A stretch of DNA of 32,000 nt, from positions 480,001-512,000 of the forward strand of contig NC_010814.1 in assembly GCF_000020385.1 (NCBI RefSeq), in the 5' to 3' direction. Positions 6,012-20,101 of the stretch are shown here, in pieces (position 1 is the stretch's first letter; each line of letters begins with the position of its first letter). Position numbers and translations under genes: made by a program. The DNA is from Trichlorobacter lovleyi SZ. GTDB taxonomy: Bacteria > Desulfobacterota > Desulfuromonadia > Geobacterales > Pseudopelobacteraceae. The notes beneath the pieces are model-generated. The model had not been told where the DNA came from. It did no database searches and was given only the letters and a program-made list of their open reading frames with translations.

Positions 6012-6401
6012 TCAGTTTCCCTGAACTGCCTTCTTGCTCAAGGAGCTGAAGATCATGTCCAGCACCGCCTTCTGGCGTACTTCATGTTTGTTGAGAACGG
6101 CAAGGCAACTGCCCATGGGGCACTGCTCATGCAGAAAGTCGGCATCCCGGCTGGAGAGGATCACAATCCTGTTTTTTTCGATGCCGGACTGCACGGCAAA
6201 ATTCATCAGTTTACGTCCATCAAGGGTGGGCATTTCAAAGTCAATCAGGATCAGGTCATAGGGGGCGCGGCGGATGGCGGTCAGCGCTTCAAGGGGGTTG
6301 TTGCAGACATCCACCGAGAGCAGGGGGTACTGTTCGGCAATATACTCTCCCAACAGGCGGGTAAAGGCTGGATCATCATCTATCAACAGAATTTTTCCCA
6401 T
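6012..6401 (-). CDS. Single-domain response regulator (CheY-like receiver)
   Basis: 129 aa. ILLIDDDP acidic pocket, DLILIDFEMPTLDG phospho-acceptor region, IVILSS, conserved Lys region. No output domain. Confidence 0.9.
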   Translation of the reverse strand: MGKILLIDDDPAFTRLLGEYIAEQYPLLSVDVCNNPLEALTAIRRAPYDLILIDFEMPTLDGRKLMNFAVQSGIEKNRIVILSSRDADFLHEQCPMGSCLAVLNKHEVRQKAVLDMIFSSLSKKAVQGN

Positions 6402-6416
6402 TGCGTCCTCAGTATG

Positions 6417-6872
6417 TCAGAACAGGTAGGGAGAGTGATTCGTGAACTGCTCCCGCTGCCTCCGGATAACCCAGCTGATCCAGAGTATGATCCCGACCGT
6501 GCAGAGATTGCTGAACAGCATGCCGCCTGGATCAATCGTCCGCTCAAGTATCCGCTCCAGTTCCTTGCGGGGCACCAGCCAGAGATTGACCAGGGTGTTC
6601 AGCACTTCATAACTGTTGTAGCTCAGCAGCAGATACCAGGTCAGGCGCTGCCGTTTCAACAGTCCGAGAAACAGATGCAGGCAGACCAGGCTGTCCAGCC
6701 CGATAAAGATCTGGGCTGCTCTCCCCTCCAGAATGCGTCCGAAAAACGGCACCGGCTGGCCATAGCTCATTACCGTCATGACCAGCAGGAAGAGGTACAG
6801 ACCGGTCAGCATGATCATGGCCTGGGAACGTGGTTGTGCCTCTTCGGTATCCTCCGGCAGATCCTCGATCAT
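6417..6872 (-). CDS. Small integral membrane protein, unknown function
   Basis: About 4 predicted TM segments. The frame is open up to a GTG at 6977, but that 35-aa extension is Arg-rich and overlaps the upstream gene. The first ATG is at 6872 (MIEDLPEDTEE...). The start is uncertain. Confidence 0.6.
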   Translation of the reverse strand: MIEDLPEDTEEAQPRSQAMIMLTGLYLFLLVMTVMSYGQPVPFFGRILEGRAAQIFIGLDSLVCLHLFLGLLKRQRLTWYLLLSYNSYEVLNTLVNLWLVPRKELERILERTIDPGGMLFSNLCTVGIILWISWVIRRQREQFTNHSPYLF

Positions 6873-6970
6873 GACTTCTTTTTTCGCATATCGCTGATCC
6901 CGACGCAAAAGGCGATCACCAGCAGGATAAAACCGATAAACAGCCAGTCGGCGGTGCTGAAGCCGAACAT

Positions 6971-7867
6971 CTAGCACCGTCCTTTCAAGGCATCAGCCTT
7001 GTCGGTCATGTTGACCGCCCGATAGCACTGCTCGAGAAAGCGGTAGACGCCAGCCATCGGGAACTGGGCGCAGAAGACCGTGTCCAGCAGTACATCCTCC
7101 ACAATGGCCGCCGCCTCATAGAACTGGTCATCCTGGTGCTGCTCAAAGGCAACCGAGAGGGCGGTCAGGTAGTCCACCGCCGGCACCTTGGGCAGTTCAC
7201 CACGCTGAATAGCGGCAATACGGGCTTCAAGACTAAGGCGCTCGCCAGCCTGCAGCCGCTCAACCAGCGGTTGCCACAAGGCCAGTGCCTGGTCATAGTG
7301 GCCCAGCACATAGTGGGTTTCTCCCAGCTGGTAGCAGGTATGCAGGTCATCCGGGGCCAGTTCAACCGAACGGCTCAGGTATTTTTCTGCACCGTACCAG
7401 GACTGCACCGCCAGGTGGGCAGCCTCCATCCGGCTTCCTTTTTCCATCAGGGTCCGGCCGATCTCCCGCCACAGGCCGGCATTATCCTGCTCCAGCAGGG
7501 CCATGATCTTCAGCAGGTTGACCTTGCGATCCAGGTAAGGGGAGTCAACCTCTTTTGCATCCAGCATGATCGCCTCGCCACCGATCTCGGCAATGATGTG
7601 GGGGTAACCTGTCTGCAACACCCGCGCATAATCAACTGCGTAGGTGCAGTCCGGGTTCTGGCGCAGGGCAAAGAACATTCCCTGGCCAACCTGATCGTAA
7701 TCGGGAGCGCCATGTTCAAGGGCGGCACGGTAGCTCTCTTCCACCAGCGGTATCGGAAATTCCCACGGGATGTTGACCCGGCCATCACGACCGGTGATGT
7801 GGAAATCTACAGGAGGTTGAAAGTAGCTGATCCCGTCCAGCGGGGTTGGTGCAATGCAGTTCTGCAT
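6971..7867 (-). CDS. Hypothetical protein with a TPR-like helical repeat region
   Basis: 298 aa. The segment AVQSWYGAEKYLSRSVELAPDDLHTCYQLGETHYVLGHYDQALALWQ looks TPR-like. Its start overlaps the upstream stop by 1 nt (TAATG). Confidence 0.75.
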   Translation of the reverse strand: MQNCIAPTPLDGISYFQPPVDFHITGRDGRVNIPWEFPIPLVEESYRAALEHGAPDYDQVGQGMFFALRQNPDCTYAVDYARVLQTGYPHIIAEIGGEAIMLDAKEVDSPYLDRKVNLLKIMALLEQDNAGLWREIGRTLMEKGSRMEAAHLAVQSWYGAEKYLSRSVELAPDDLHTCYQLGETHYVLGHYDQALALWQPLVERLQAGERLSLEARIAAIQRGELPKVPAVDYLTALSVAFEQHQDDQFYEAAAIVEDVLLDTVFCAQFPMAGVYRFLEQCYRAVNMTDKADALKGRC

Positions 7868-11781: not shown

Positions 11782-11810
11782 TGTCACTGCTCCTTTCATC
11801 CATTTCCCAT

Positions 11811-11818
11811 AACAATTT
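11811..11818. repeat. Left copy of the 8-bp target-site duplication AACAATTT
   Basis: An identical octamer directly abuts the other IS end at 13221-13228. Confidence 0.85.
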
Positions 11819-13220
11819 GGCTCTTCAGCAGAATCTGTGGGTAGCCTCAGGTTCTGGCAGGTTGCCAAGTGTATGATACAAGGCGATTTTCATCACTTCA
11901 AAGTTTCTGAAACCGTATGCTTTACGTGAGGTCACTTTAGCCTTGTTGTTGAATCCTTCTACGGCCCCCAAGGCAACCTGCCCTTTGGTCCGAAACCAGT
12001 TGAGTAACAGCTCCCGATGCGAGCGCAGCATCTTGGCAATCTTCTTCATCGGGATGATGCGTGACCTCATGGTTCTTTTGCACCAAGCATCCAGAAATCT
12101 GGCAGCCCAGCCCGCAGTGGCATAGCGCCAGAAGAACTGGAACTCCTCTTTGAGGAGATAGGCCCGGACGGTTTTCAAGTTAATGGCCAGCAGTTCATTC
12201 AGCTTGATGCTCTGCTTCTCCGTCAGGTGTTCAGGCCGTTTGAGCAGGCACCAGCGGCTACCGGTCAGCACCGGTTCCTGGCCCTTGGCTTTCAGTTCTC
12301 TGGCTTCCGTTGCCCGGACCTTGTCGACAGCTTTGCCGAAGTGGGTCATGACATGGAACCGGTCAAGGATATGCATGGCTTGACCTGCAACCTCGGCGAC
12401 GATCCGCAGGTATGGCTTCCACATGTCGCTGCAGATGAACCGAAGGTGTGCTGTTCGCTCTTTGCCAAACTCCTTGAAGAACTGCCGCAACGTTTTCTGG
12501 GTCCGCTCCTTGCCGACCCACAGCAGGCGTTTGCATCCGGCATCGATCTGGTAAACCAGGGTCAGGTACTTGTGCCCCTTTTTCCAGGCAATCTCGTCGA
12601 TGCCGATGGCGGTTATGGTGTCGAGGTCGCGGTGGGCCAGTCCCCAGGCAACGGCCATTTTGACCGAGCGGAAGACGTTGTCCCAACTGGTCTGAAACAC
12701 TTGCCCCACTTCCTTCCACGACAACCGCCTGGCCCAGCGGGCCAGGAACCAGGCATAGGTGGTGGTCAGGTGGTTCTTGCCGGTGGCCCAGGGGACTTGT
12801 TCCACCTTCACACCGCAGGATGGGCAACTGACCCGGCGCATGGCGTAGAGGAAGAACACGGCAATGCCCCATAGCGGCACGAACTCAAACCGGCGCACAG
12901 GCAAGGTGTCATAGCCGGGACCAGGTTTGCCGCATCTGGAACAGACAGGCTGCCTGTTCTTGCGGGGGCGGATCTCAATGTCAAGGACCGTGCGCTGTCC
13001 CTTGTTTCGCTGGTGGACAGCGCCATACACAAAACCTTGATGCGGTTGAACGAAATTCAGTATAGACTTGAGCTGCATCCCGCTCTCCTTGTCTGTATTG
13101 GGTTTCTTGGTCGAAACACACAATGACAGATTTGTAGGCGGGATGCTCTATTTCGTTCACCAGGTAGCTGCTCAGACCATCTTCGGCAGGTCAGTTACCC
13201 ATAAATTCTGCGGAAGAACC
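11819..13220 (-). mobile_element. Complete ISL3-family insertion sequence (1402 bp)
   Basis: Single transposase ORF. Terminal imperfect inverted repeats GGCTCTTCAGCAGAATCTGTGGGTA (11819-11843) versus the reverse complement of 13196-13220, GGTTCTTCCGCAGAATTTATGGGTA (21/25 identical). The GGCTCTT-type terminus and 8-bp direct repeats are both typical of ISL3. Confidence 0.9.
11825..13078 (-). CDS. ISL3-family transposase
   Basis: N-terminal zinc-finger CSRCG...CPSCG, DDE region ([22 protein letters not shown]..., [18 protein letters not shown]). ATG at 13078 with an AAGGAGAG RBS. The upstream 15 codons in the ORF track are unlikely. The stop codon lies inside the left IR. Confidence 0.92.
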
Positions 13221-13228
13221 AACAATTT
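13221..13228. repeat. Right copy of the 8-bp target-site duplication AACAATTT
   Basis: See 11811-11818. Confidence 0.85.
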
Positions 13229-13258
13229 AGGCAGCTTTTAGCCCGCTGTCAACGTTGC

Positions 13259-13287
13259 TTGACAGTCCGGGAGGTGCACCGTACTAT
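13259..13287 (+). promoter_or_regulatory. Putative sigma70-type promoter of hemY
   Basis: TTGACA (13259-13264), 17 nt spacer, TACTAT (13282-13287), about 30 nt upstream of the ATG at 13318. Confidence 0.45.
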
Positions 13288-13317
13288 CTATCGTTACCAC
13301 AGTGCGAGAGGAGTATC

Positions 13318-14721
13318 ATGAAAAAAGTACTGGTAATTGGCGGCGGCATATCCGGTCTTTCCACGGCCTGGCTGCTGAACAAGCGGGCCGGAGAGGCCGG
13401 GATAAGCCTTGATCTCTGTCTGCTTGAGCAGGAACAGCAGCCCGGCGGCAAGATCAAATCGGTTCGTGAGGATGGCTTCTTATGCGAATGGGGCCCCAAC
13501 GGGTTTCTGGACAGCAAGCCCCAGACCCTGGAACTCTGCGCTACTTTGGGGATAACCGATCGTCTGCACCGCAGTAATGATAATGCCCGCAAACGGTATA
13601 TCTTCACCGGTGGCGAGCTGCACCGCCTGCCGGAAAACGGTCCTTCCTTTCTGAAGAGCCGTCTGCTTTCCTGGCCCGGCAAGCTCAGGCTGCTGGGGGA
13701 ACCGTTTGCCGCCAACCCGCCGGGCAGTGACGAAAGTCTGGCGGCCTTTGGCCGTCGCCGTCTTGGTGCAGAGGCGCTGCAGAAACTGATTGCGCCGATG
13801 GCCTCCGGTATCTTTGCCGGTGACCCTGAAACCATGTCGCTGGTCTCCTGCTTTCCCCGCATTGCCGAGCTGGAGCGGGAATATGGCGGCCTGTTTGTGG
13901 CCATGCTGGCCCTGGCAAAGAAAAAGAAGCAGGAACGCAAAGAGGGCAAGATCAGCAGCTCAGCTGCCGGGCCGGGGGGGACCCTGACCTCATTTAAAGA
14001 GGGGATCCAGTTTCTGACCGATACCCTGGCAGCCCAACTGGGTGAGCAGGTCAGGACCGGGGTTGCGGTTGCTTCGGTTACCAGATCAGGTGACGGCTGG
14101 GAGGTCAGAACCACAGGGGGAGAAACCCTGCAGGCTGATCTGGTGATCTCGGCAGCGCCGGCCTTTGCTGCTGCCGGCATGCTGGAGGGGGTTGATACTG
14201 CCCTGGTTGATACCCTGCGCCAGATCCTCTATTCCACTCTGAATGTGGTCTGCTGCGGTTTCAAAACCGAAGGTCTGGGGCATCCGCTGGACGGCTTTGG
14301 TTATCTGGTGCCCAAGGAGGAAGGGCGTACCGTACTGGGTACCCTCTGGGATTCAAGCATGTTTGAAGAGCGGGCGCCGGATGGCATGGCGCTTTTGCGC
14401 AGCATGGCCGGTGGAGCCTGCCGCCCTGAATTGATGGAGCTGCCGGAGTCTGAGCTGCTGCAGCGGGTGCGGGATGACCTGCAGGCCGCCATGGGGATCA
14501 GCCAGCCCCCCTGTTTCAGCCGGATCATCCGCCATCAACAGGCAATACCACAGTACACGATAGGGCATGGCAAACGGCTGGAGGCGATTGAAGGGCGCCT
14601 GTCCAGTCTGCCCGGTCTGCTGCTGACCGGCAACGCCTTTAAAGGAGTCGGACTCAACGACTGCGTAGCGGCCTCGCAGGCCACCGTGGAGCGGGCAATG
14701 GCATATCTCGAGAGGGTATAA
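13318..14721 (+). CDS. hemY: Protoporphyrinogen/coproporphyrinogen III oxidase, HemY (FAD, oxygen-dependent) family
   Basis: MKKVLVIGGGISGLSTAW dinucleotide-binding start, overall HemY/PPOX layout, C-terminal LLLTGNAFKGVGLNDC. ATG at 13318 with a GAGAGGAG RBS. The TTG at 13255 in the track falls on the promoter. Confidence 0.92.
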   Translation: MKKVLVIGGGISGLSTAWLLNKRAGEAGISLDLCLLEQEQQPGGKIKSVREDGFLCEWGPNGFLDSKPQTLELCATLGITDRLHRSNDNARKRYIFTGGELHRLPENGPSFLKSRLLSWPGKLRLLGEPFAANPPGSDESLAAFGRRRLGAEALQKLIAPMASGIFAGDPETMSLVSCFPRIAELEREYGGLFVAMLALAKKKKQERKEGKISSSAAGPGGTLTSFKEGIQFLTDTLAAQLGEQVRTGVAVASVTRSGDGWEVRTTGGETLQADLVISAAPAFAAAGMLEGVDTALVDTLRQILYSTLNVVCCGFKTEGLGHPLDGFGYLVPKEEGRTVLGTLWDSSMFEERAPDGMALLRSMAGGACRPELMELPESELLQRVRDDLQAAMGISQPPCFSRIIRHQQAIPQYTIGHGKRLEAIEGRLSSLPGLLLTGNAFKGVGLNDCVAASQATVERAMAYLERV

Positions 14722-14723
14722 CC

Positions 14724-14978
14724 ATGAAGATCCGAAAAAAACTGTTCGCCGATTTTGAGTATGAAGAGGTGCTGGATACCAAGACCCGCGAACTGATCCG
14801 GGTCGGCTGCGCCGTGGCAGTGGGGTGCCCCACCTGACTGAAGAAACACTTCGCCCTGGCGAAGGAAGCCGGCGCCGGGAGCGCCGAACTGAAGGAAGCC
14901 ATGGCCTACGGGGTGATCGCTCCGGCCGGCAGGGCCAAGAATTTTGCACTGGAGCTGTTGGAAGAATTGGAAAAGTAA
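14724..14978 (+). CDS. AhpD/carboxymuconolactone-decarboxylase-family small redox protein with in-frame UGA (predicted selenocysteine U38)
   Basis: Read-through translation: MKIRKKLFADFEYEEVLDTKTRELIRVGCAVAVGCPT-U-LKKHFALAKEAGAGSAELKEAMAYGVIAPAGRAKNFALELLEELEK. TGA at 14835-14837 falls on the second Cys of the CxxCxxxH motif. GAGAGGG RBS at 14710-14716. The ATG is 2 nt after the hemY stop. Stem-loops lie 12 and 33 nt downstream of the UGA. Confidence 0.75.
14838..14886 (+). promoter_or_regulatory. Candidate bacterial SECIS region (two stem-loops downstream of UGA)
   Basis: Hairpin A: CUUCGC/GCGAAG, 14849-14864, loop CCUG. Hairpin B: CGGCGC/GCGCCG, 14870-14886, loop CGGGA. Folded by eye only. 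Confidence 0.4.
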
Positions 14979-14997
14979 AACGTCGCAGTAGTTTTAC
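14975..14997. terminator. Weak AT-rich hairpin spanning both stop codons of the convergent selenoprotein and radC genes
   Basis: GTAAAAC (14975-14981) pairs with GTTTTAC (14991-14997), 9-nt loop. It is the only structure available in the 15-nt gap. Confidence 0.3.
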
Positions 14998-15686
14998 AGC
15001 AGTCCTGATTCTACGAAGCTGAAGTAGGCACCATCCCCGATGATGATATGATCCAGTACCTTGATCCCCAGGATCTCACCGGCCTCGTTCAGGCGGCGGG
15101 TGATCTCGTGGTCCTCCCGGCTGGGGGCCGGATCGCCGGAGGGATGGTTGTGGATGAAGATCACGGCAGCGGCCGATTCCCGCACTGCCGGGGCAAAGAC
15201 CTCCCGCGGATGGACGATGGATTGATTCAGGCTGCCTTCTGATACCTGTACCTTGCGGGTGATCCGGTTCTTACCGTCCAACAGCAGGGTCAGAAACAGT
15301 TCTTTACGGTTATCCCGCAGCTCATGGTGGAAAAAGTCAAAGACCTGGGCCGGTGAGGTAAACCGTTCCAGGGTCTCCAAGCGCCGGGCCTGAAAACGCT
15401 TCCCCAGCGTAAAGGCTGCCTTGATTGAGGCAGCCTTGGCCAAGCCCAGTCCCTTGATCTGTTGCAGTTCATTCAGTTCAGCCTGGGCCAGCTCCCGCAG
15501 GTTGCCGTCAAACCGTTCCAGCAGTTCCCGTCCCAGATCAATGGCACTTTTGCCTGCTGCAGCATCGCCGGTACGCAGTACCAGGGCCAGCAGCTCTGCA
15601 TCGGACAGGGCTGCAGCGCCACGTTTGAGCAGCTTTTCCCGTGGCCGTTCATCTTCCGGCCAGTCTTTGATGGCATTGTTGCTCAT
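14994..15686 (-). CDS. radC: RadC-family (JAB/MPN domain, UPF0758) protein
   Basis: 230 aa. ERPREKLLKRGAAALSDAELLALVLRTG helix-hairpin-helix start and HNHPSGDPAPSREDHEITRRL JAMM motif. Confidence 0.93.
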   Translation of the reverse strand: MSNNAIKDWPEDERPREKLLKRGAAALSDAELLALVLRTGDAAAGKSAIDLGRELLERFDGNLRELAQAELNELQQIKGLGLAKAASIKAAFTLGKRFQARRLETLERFTSPAQVFDFFHHELRDNRKELFLTLLLDGKNRITRKVQVSEGSLNQSIVHPREVFAPAVRESAAAVIFIHNHPSGDPAPSREDHEITRRLNEAGEILGIKVLDHIIIGDGAYFSFVESGLL

Positions 15687-19594: not shown

Positions 19595-20101
19595 ATGCGA
19601 TGTGCTCTTGTTTTTCTGCTTTTTGTGCTCAACCTGCTAACCCTTTCCGTAACTCCCTGTCTGGCGGTAAAACTCAACACCCCGGCCCCGGATTTTACCC
19701 TCAAAGACCTGCAGGGGGGCAGACAAACCCTTTCAGGCTACCGGGGCAAGCTTGTACTGCTTAACTTCTGGTCCACCACCTGCCCCCCCTGCGTACAGGA
19801 ACTGCCATCACTGAACGATCTGTACAAAGATCAGAAACAGGCCGGACTCCTGGTGCTGGGTATTGCCCTTGATCCTGCTGAAAAGCCGGTTCATGAACTG
19901 GCCGGCAAGCTCAGGCTGGAGTTTCCGGTCGTGCTTGATAGTAACAAGGATGTCTACTTTGACAGCTATGGCCTGTTTGGACAGCCGGTCAGCGTTATTA
20001 TTGACCGTACCGGCCTGGTGCGTGAAAAGATGATTGGTGCCGTGGACTGGAACTCGCCCCAGATCAGGGCAAAAATAACCAGCTATCTGAAAGGACGGTG
20101 A
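19595..20101 (+). CDS. Periplasmic thiol:disulfide oxidoreductase, TlpA/ResA family (second paralogue)
   Basis: 168 aa. Signal peptide, VLLNFWSTTCPPCVQELPSL. Confidence 0.9.
   Translation: MRCALVFLLFVLNLLTLSVTPCLAVKLNTPAPDFTLKDLQGGRQTLSGYRGKLVLLNFWSTTCPPCVQELPSLNDLYKDQKQAGLLVLGIALDPAEKPVHELAGKLRLEFPVVLDSNKDVYFDSYGLFGQPVSVIIDRTGLVREKMIGAVDWNSPQIRAKITSYLKGR

Follow-up and report, generated by a model that had tools for sequence, protein, structure and literature searches.

The window (the whole 32,000-nt stretch of Trichlorobacter lovleyi SZ DNA analyzed here) contains a protoporphyrinogen oxidase gene of the hemY type whose stop codon (TAA, 14719-14721) is followed, after a gap of only 2 nt, by an ATG at position 14724. 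The reading frame opened by this ATG runs into an in-frame TGA at codon 38 and closes with a TAA at 14976-14978, leaving 37 codons before the TGA and 46 after it. The features of the locus are as follows.

13255-14721, + strand: hemY-type protoporphyrinogen oxidase gene (TIGR00562, E=1.2e-96, alignment starting at residue 22)
14710-14716, + strand: Shine-Dalgarno-like sequence GAGAGGG, 7 nt 5' of the ATG
14724-14978, + strand: predicted coding sequence of a GSU3128-family (distant AhpD homolog) selenoprotein, 84 residues plus TAA
14790-14849, + strand: predicted active-site helix hairpin, E23-x11-C35-P-T-U38-x3-H42, with E23, C35 and H42 invariant
14835-14837, + strand: predicted selenocysteine codon U38, an in-frame TGA, with TGA in the same column in 98 of 98 loci
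14849-14864, + strand: hairpin 1, CUUCGC-CCUG-GCGAAG, 17 nt after the UGA, the canonical SECIS position of the family
14870-14886, + strand: hairpin 2, CGGCGC-CGGGA-GCGCCG, 38 nt after the UGA, candidate SECIS of the Trichlorobacter clade

Read through the TGA, the frame translates as MKIRKKLFADFEYEEVLDTKTRELIRVGCAVAVGCPT*LKKHFALAKEAGAGSAELKEAMAYGVIAPAGRAKNFALELLEELEK* (the first asterisk being the TGA at codon 38), and the product carries the redox motif C35-P-T-U38-L-K-K-H42. An earlier note, made from the sequence alone, had described this frame as an 84-aa read-through product split into 37 and 46 codons, preceded by its own ribosome-binding site and beginning 2 nt after the hemY stop, with no listed ORF covering it in full. 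The observation is real, and every sequence-level statement in it was confirmed; the mechanical ORF list, for instance, shows only the 37-aa piece at 14724-14837. In orthologues, the position equivalent to the GAGAGGG of the window is occupied by GGAGG or GGGAGG.

The same note had assigned both halves of the frame to the carboxymuconolactone decarboxylase (CMD)/AhpD family and had proposed profile searches with PF02627 and TIGR00778, which we ran on the product with U replaced by C. Both models scored above threshold, PF02627 with 54.4 bits over residues 8-81 (gathering threshold 23) and TIGR00778, the AhpD core model, with 35.6 bits (threshold 27.8). When the two pieces were searched separately against PF02627, each fell on its own half of that model, with residues 7-36 aligned to profile positions 11-39 and residues 2-43 of the second piece to positions 43-84. 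The strongest match was to the NCBIfam equivalog NF041047, "GSU3128 family (seleno)protein", at 160.4 bits (cutoff 110, E=8.6e-48), with residues 1-83 aligned to positions 1-83 of the 84-position profile, while the model for PcaC, the 4-carboxymuconolactone decarboxylase (TIGR02425), reached 19.7 bits, below its equivalog cutoff of 155.7.

The closest solved structures by sequence are the small CMD-domain proteins 7y4r, 3bey and 5dik. All three have a cysteine opposite U38, namely the second Cys of CxxCxxxH, which is where the earlier note had placed the TGA. A further Cys/Sec pair is provided by one metagenomic orthologue, P0003, which has Cys (CSEC) at the Sec column. The AlphaFold (AF2) model of this Cys-form orthologue is a four-helix domain with a pLDDT of 82.9, and its top fold matches in the PDB are all CMD/AhpD proteins, M. 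tuberculosis AhpD among them. Two of the three structures, 3bey (M. thermautotrophicus O27018, 96 aa) and 7y4r (RclX, 112 aa), are the best matches by sequence (E=1e-8 and 6e-8) as well as by fold (TM about 0.59 to the P0003 model). These hexameric proteins have the CxxCxxxH motif and are of similar size to the window protein, but they carry Cys instead of Sec, share only 33-42% identity with it, and have poorly defined functions of their own. Every solved small CMD homologue has six chains in its deposited entry, and it is thus plausible by analogy that the selenoprotein also forms an oligomer.

To follow the TGA column through related genomes, as the earlier note had suggested, we assembled orthologues from 17 species-representative genomes (Geobacteraceae, Trichlorobacter and Desulfuromonadales) and 80 metagenome contigs, which together with the window amount to 98 loci and 91 distinct CDS. 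TGA occupies the Sec column in 18 of 18 genomes and, with the metagenomes included, in 98 of 98 loci, and E23, C35 and H42 are unchanged in all 91 distinct CDS. Coding conservation likewise persists 3' of the TGA. By the Nei-Gojobori method, codons 39-81 give dN/dS values of 0.076 inside the clade of the window, 0.112 inside the other one, and 0.129 when the window is set against that other clade, compared to 0.023-0.101 for codons 11-37 on the 5' side. Many columns downstream of the TGA combine one invariant amino acid with two to four synonymous codons. Low downstream dN/dS and synonymous codons beneath invariant residues together show that the second half is translated and under purifying selection. 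Judged from these comparisons, the match is far beyond chance, with a CMD hit that extends across both halves and a TGA column that does not change.

These data bear directly on the reading that the existing records imply, in which the locus is a pseudogene or encodes a true 37-residue peptide ending at the TGA, with the 46 later codons untranslated. The GenBank record of the locus is indeed a 37-residue stump (ACD94250.1, "conserved hypothetical protein"; UniProt B3E338), gene calls on other assemblies and on metagenomes also give a 37-aa product, and the databases contain some 70 N-terminal stumps that end in ...GCPT. (The earlier note had expected annotation to leave the locus intergenic or to call it a pseudogene, which is not what the GenBank call of a hypothetical protein does.) Against a genuine 37-residue product, the TGA has been kept in every locus while dS is about 0.7-1.4, dN/dS downstream is about 0.1 and equal to that upstream, and the second half fits the second half of the CMD profile; the stump would, moreover, be left without H42 and two of the four helices. 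We give this reading practically no credence and regard it as already refuted on the comparative evidence, which also excludes sequencing error and generic read-through with Trp. Two separate small ORFs were considered as well and rejected, there being no start codon after the TGA until M60.

A second possibility is that UGA38 is read as Trp, Cys or another standard residue, whether through a genetic code resembling codes 4 or 25 or through near-cognate read-through. Twelve metagenomic entries (P0001, P0002 and P0004-P0013) are in fact deposited with W at the Sec column. These W calls, however, are gene-caller artefacts on short contigs, and Trp would destroy the site, because in all solved homologues this column holds the second, catalytic Cys. 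TGA also terminates 12 of the 29 genes in the window and is thus a normal stop in this genome. The conserved hairpins and frozen synonymous sites 3' of the UGA that are described below are expected for SelB-dependent recoding, and the organism has been reported to utilize Sec (PMC5029168). We therefore consider decoding as a standard residue very improbable. A systematic scan of the 32-kb window found no TGA-interrupted ORF outside the major genes other than the selenoprotein gene. One read-through candidate at 6012-6977 on the minus strand was set aside as ordinary adjacent genes in the same frame with a single TGA between them (151 aa and a 129-aa response regulator in the gene calls of assembly GCA_047291845.1, hereafter L024).

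The evidence thus supports reading the locus as a gene for a selenoprotein of CMD/AhpD fold whose Sec takes the place of the second Cys in CxxCxxxH. With a probability that we put at about 0.93, the gene encodes an 84-residue, single-domain, GSU3128-family selenoprotein of T. lovleyi SZ in which UGA38 specifies Sec within a C35-P-T-U38 redox centre.

The earlier note had called this a hidden selenoprotein gene and had stated that AhpD-like selenoproteins were already on record. The selenoprotein part of that description stood, as did the precedent, and it is the precedent that takes away the word hidden: descriptions of the family date from 2004-2006, and it has an annotation model of its own. 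Zhang et al. 2006 (PMC1794560) listed a "distant AhpD homolog" as a selenoprotein in both G. sulfurreducens and G. uraniumreducens. The NF041047 family is given as a CxxU selenoprotein with one Sec in PMC13188914, by way of which the GSU3128 family is attributed to Kryukov & Gladyshev 2004. Peng et al. 2016 (PMC5029168), who define the Sec trait by SelD, SelA and SelB, include Geobacter lovleyi SZ among the Sec-utilizing organisms with 12 selenoprotein genes (Table S2), and they record "Distant AhpD homolog COG0599" for 10 organisms in a table of families. Given the accounts in PMC1794560, PMC5029168 and PMC13188914, the family is already known, and known in a Sec-utilizing organism, making the finding real but not new. 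Compared to the GSU3128-family reference (about 84 residues, CxxU, one Sec), the window gene is an orthologue with no essential difference, and it comes from the same taxonomic group, the Geobacterales/Desulfuromonadales. Literature searches under the name GSU3128 returned no match, and searches for "Geobacter lovleyi" with selenocysteine returned nothing relevant. Within the 32-kb window, there is no selA, selB, selC or selD, and ARAGORN found no tRNA or tRNA-Sec. Rfam searches likewise produced nothing relevant, either over the whole window at the gathering threshold or over positions 14600-15100 at E<=10.

If UGA38 is decoded as Sec, this would be done by SelB and tRNA-Sec under the direction of an mRNA hairpin just 3' of the codon, and the two hairpins of the window are the candidates for that role. 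We divided the distinct CDS by protein identity to the window into clade A (identity of at least 0.89; 18 distinct CDS, all Trichlorobacter, window included) and clade B (identity of 0.86 or less; 73 distinct CDS), a division which coincides exactly with the types of hairpin. We then compared the hairpins to the bSECIS consensus, a set of four rules including a spacing of 16-37 nt and a G in the first two loop positions (PMC13188914). The window departs from this consensus in both hairpins, each in a different way. Hairpin 1 (-8.2 kcal/mol) conforms to the spacing, stem and energy rules, but neither of the leading two positions of its CCUG loop is a G. Hairpin 2 (-11.7 kcal/mol, loop CGGGA) conforms to the loop, stem and energy rules, but its 38-nt spacing lies 1 nt past the range.

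In clade B, hairpin 1 is universal, reading CUUCGC-GG[UGC][CU]-GCGAAG in 73 of 73 CDS with energies of -8.2 to -9.4 kcal/mol, in keeping with all four bSECIS rules; in loci L008-L016 and L042-L109 it spans UGA+14 to +29. It agrees with the E. coli fdhF-type bSECIS model (Zhang & Gladyshev 2005) in its stem of 6-7 bp and its 17-nt spacing, and the loops GGUC, GGGC, GGCC and GGCU agree with the fdhF-type consensus as well. Codons 42-47 of clade B (H-F-A-x-A-K) show zero synonymous variation, compared to a minor-codon fraction that averages 0.39 elsewhere (p=1.5e-4), and in a 9-genome subset of the clade all six of these codons are frozen versus 2 of 37 elsewhere (p=4.6e-6). The residue encoded at the loop alternates among V, G and A, whose codons always begin with G, and the GG start of the loop is kept as a result.

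The situation in clade A is different. There the loop of hairpin 1 is CCUG, CUUG or UUUG, the stem is broken in 7 of 18 sequences, and the pairwise synonymous difference over the region is 0.27 (9-genome set). It is instead hairpin 2 that is conserved, as CGGCGC-CG[GU]GA-GCGCCG, with energies of -9.5 to -11.7 kcal/mol and the stem kept in 17 of 18 sequences; of the four single changes in that stem, three give G-U wobbles. Codons 50-55 of clade A are frozen synonymously (5 of 5 versus 9 of 61 elsewhere, Fisher p=2e-4), with a minor-codon fraction of 0.019 versus 0.248 (p=5e-4) and a synonymous variation of 0.02-0.05. Hairpin 2 is absent from the 73 distinct CDS of clade B, in which codons 50-55 vary synonymously, and residues 52-54 are hypervariable there, in contrast to the fixed GSA of clade A. 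In the Trichlorobacter clade, unlike the rest of the GSU3128 family, a second hairpin 21 nt downstream thus either takes the place of the GGNN-loop hairpin or stands beside it.

Seven clade A sequences (L002, L003, L007 and four metagenome loci) have yet another arrangement, a register-shifted hairpin, CGCCUU-GGCA-AAGGCG, with a 6-bp stem at UGA+17 to +32, 20 nt after the UGA, and an energy of -9.6 kcal/mol, which satisfies the bSECIS rules. This Trichlorobacter sub-lineage has lost hairpin 1, retains hairpin 2, and carries the substitutions F43Y and E48A. RNAalifold on 18 sequences gave no covariation support, and compensatory double substitutions were absent from both stems except for one C-G to U-A change, by which a single clade A sequence retains the stem of hairpin 1. 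The single-sequence fold is unexceptional (z-score -1.49).

Taken together, these results support the presence of a SECIS 3' of the window UGA. As to which hairpin it is, one may ask whether hairpin 1 is still the working SECIS, with hairpin 2 auxiliary or conserved for some other reason. Hairpin 1 is, after all, present in the window at the canonical distance and with an energy of -8.2 kcal/mol, it is found throughout clade B, its stem has been retained in one clade A sequence by the compensatory change just mentioned, and hairpin 2 sits slightly beyond the consensus spacing range. Arguing the other way are the clade A loops of hairpin 1, none of which has the required G in its first two positions, the frequent breakage of its stem in that clade, the contrast between the freely varying synonymous sites there and the frozen codons 50-55, and the fixation of GSA at otherwise hypervariable positions. 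On balance, we consider it unlikely, though well worth weighing, that hairpin 1 is still in use; the synonymous-site evidence favours hairpin 2 (14870-14886) as the putative working SECIS of the window strain. We suggest tentatively, at slightly under even odds, that the SECIS has relocated, i.e., that the ancestral GGNN hairpin is decaying in the Trichlorobacter clade and that a stronger hairpin 21 nt downstream has taken over. The new hairpin 2 would then be what constrains both the synonymous sites and residues 52-54, which are otherwise hypervariable.

For the chemistry of the predicted product, we compared it to M. tuberculosis AhpD (PDB 1GU9/1KNC) and to PA0269 of the AhpD-like family (PDB 2O4D), which have the same two-helix active-site hairpin and the same E-x11-C-x2-C-x3-H spacing. 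The relay of AhpD consists of Glu118/Cys130/His132/Cys133/His137, or E-x11-C-x-H-C-x3-H, and that of PA0269 of Glu36/Cys48/Tyr50/Cys51/His55 (PMC3141380). The equivalents in the window protein are E23/C35/T37/U38/H42, with four of the five positions conserved; at the remaining one, His132 of AhpD or Tyr50 of PA0269 gives way to Thr37 (in some orthologues Asp, Ala or Val). The window protein also differs from AhpD in having Sec at the position of Cys133 and in being a single CMD domain of 84 aa, half the size of the 177-aa AhpD. In AhpD, Cys133 is exposed and cross-links to Cys61 of AhpC, and Cys130 is partly buried (PMC6626918), on which basis Sec would occupy the attacking position and C35 the resolving one. 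The second active-site helix would carry the C35-P-T-U38 redox centre at its N-terminus, with E23 and H42 flanking that centre. The oxidized partner attacked by U38 would be a peroxide or else a peroxiredoxin-type sulfenate or disulfide, and C35 would resolve the intermediate into a selenenylsulfide. By analogy, the protein is most likely a small thiol/selenol oxidoreductase acting on an oxidized protein thiol or on peroxide, with both chemistry and partner inferred from these homologues.

Linkage to ahpC, which would be expected of a bona fide AhpD (AhpC-reducing alkylhydroperoxidase D), is not seen here: the window gene has no ahpC next to it, and no ahpC-type partner is found in its operon. 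A gene of the AhpC/TSA-Redoxin family (168 aa, 19595-20101, + strand) is located 4.6 kb downstream in a separate transcription unit. It is conceivable that its product is the redox partner, but nothing links the two.

The immediate neighbour, hemY, is probably co-transcribed with the selenoprotein gene, as no promoter-like or terminator-like site was found on the + strand between hemY and 14724. The longest hemY ORF begins with a TTG at 13255, but translation probably starts near 13318, given that TIGR00562 aligns from residue 22 and that the L024 annotation calls a protein of 467 aa. The extra 5' stretch of the longer ORF contains a sigma-70-like site at 13259-13287. Upstream of hemY is an ISL3-family insertion sequence of 1399 bp (11822-13220), with its transposase ORF on the minus strand at 11825-13123 (NF033550, E=2.7e-90) and a 12-nt direct duplication at its flanks (11810-11821 identical to 13221-13232). 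The element separates hemY from a divergent DnaJ-like gene, probably occupies the region of the promoter for the hemY-selenoprotein pair, and is missing from L024, whose contig is otherwise 99.99-100% identical.

On the downstream side, the RadC and UppP proteins of the window are identical to ACD94251.1 (Glov_0523) and ACD94252.1 of T. lovleyi SZ, respectively. Most loci of the Trichlorobacter clade share the order hemY-selenoprotein-RadC-UppP, with HemY present in 13 of 17 and RadC likewise in 13 of 17. This order occurs in 0 of 73 clade B loci, hemY being no neighbour of the gene in other clades. Recurrent neighbours in clade B are a predicted membrane protein of ~460 aa (30 loci) and a protein of ~1000 aa (17 loci), which by eye resemble a MATE transporter and GlnE. 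Because gene contexts differ between the clades, the neighbourhood offers no clue to function. A link to haem synthesis through the adjacency of hemY was considered and rejected, as this synteny exists only in the Trichlorobacter clade.

For annotation, the consequence is practical. ACD94250.1/B3E338 and many metagenome calls truncate the gene at 37 residues or give Trp for the TGA, and the full 84-residue selenoprotein deserves to be annotated with a transl_except qualifier. As regards the biology of the GSU3128 family, the gene in T. lovleyi adds nothing new. If the proposed SECIS relocation is true, however, it would represent SECIS turnover in nature within one orthologous selenoprotein family and would slightly extend the spacing that bacterial SelB tolerates. 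The clade-specific change of hairpin could, in that event, serve as a small natural test case for the evolution of bacterial SECIS elements and for the limits on their distance from the UGA.
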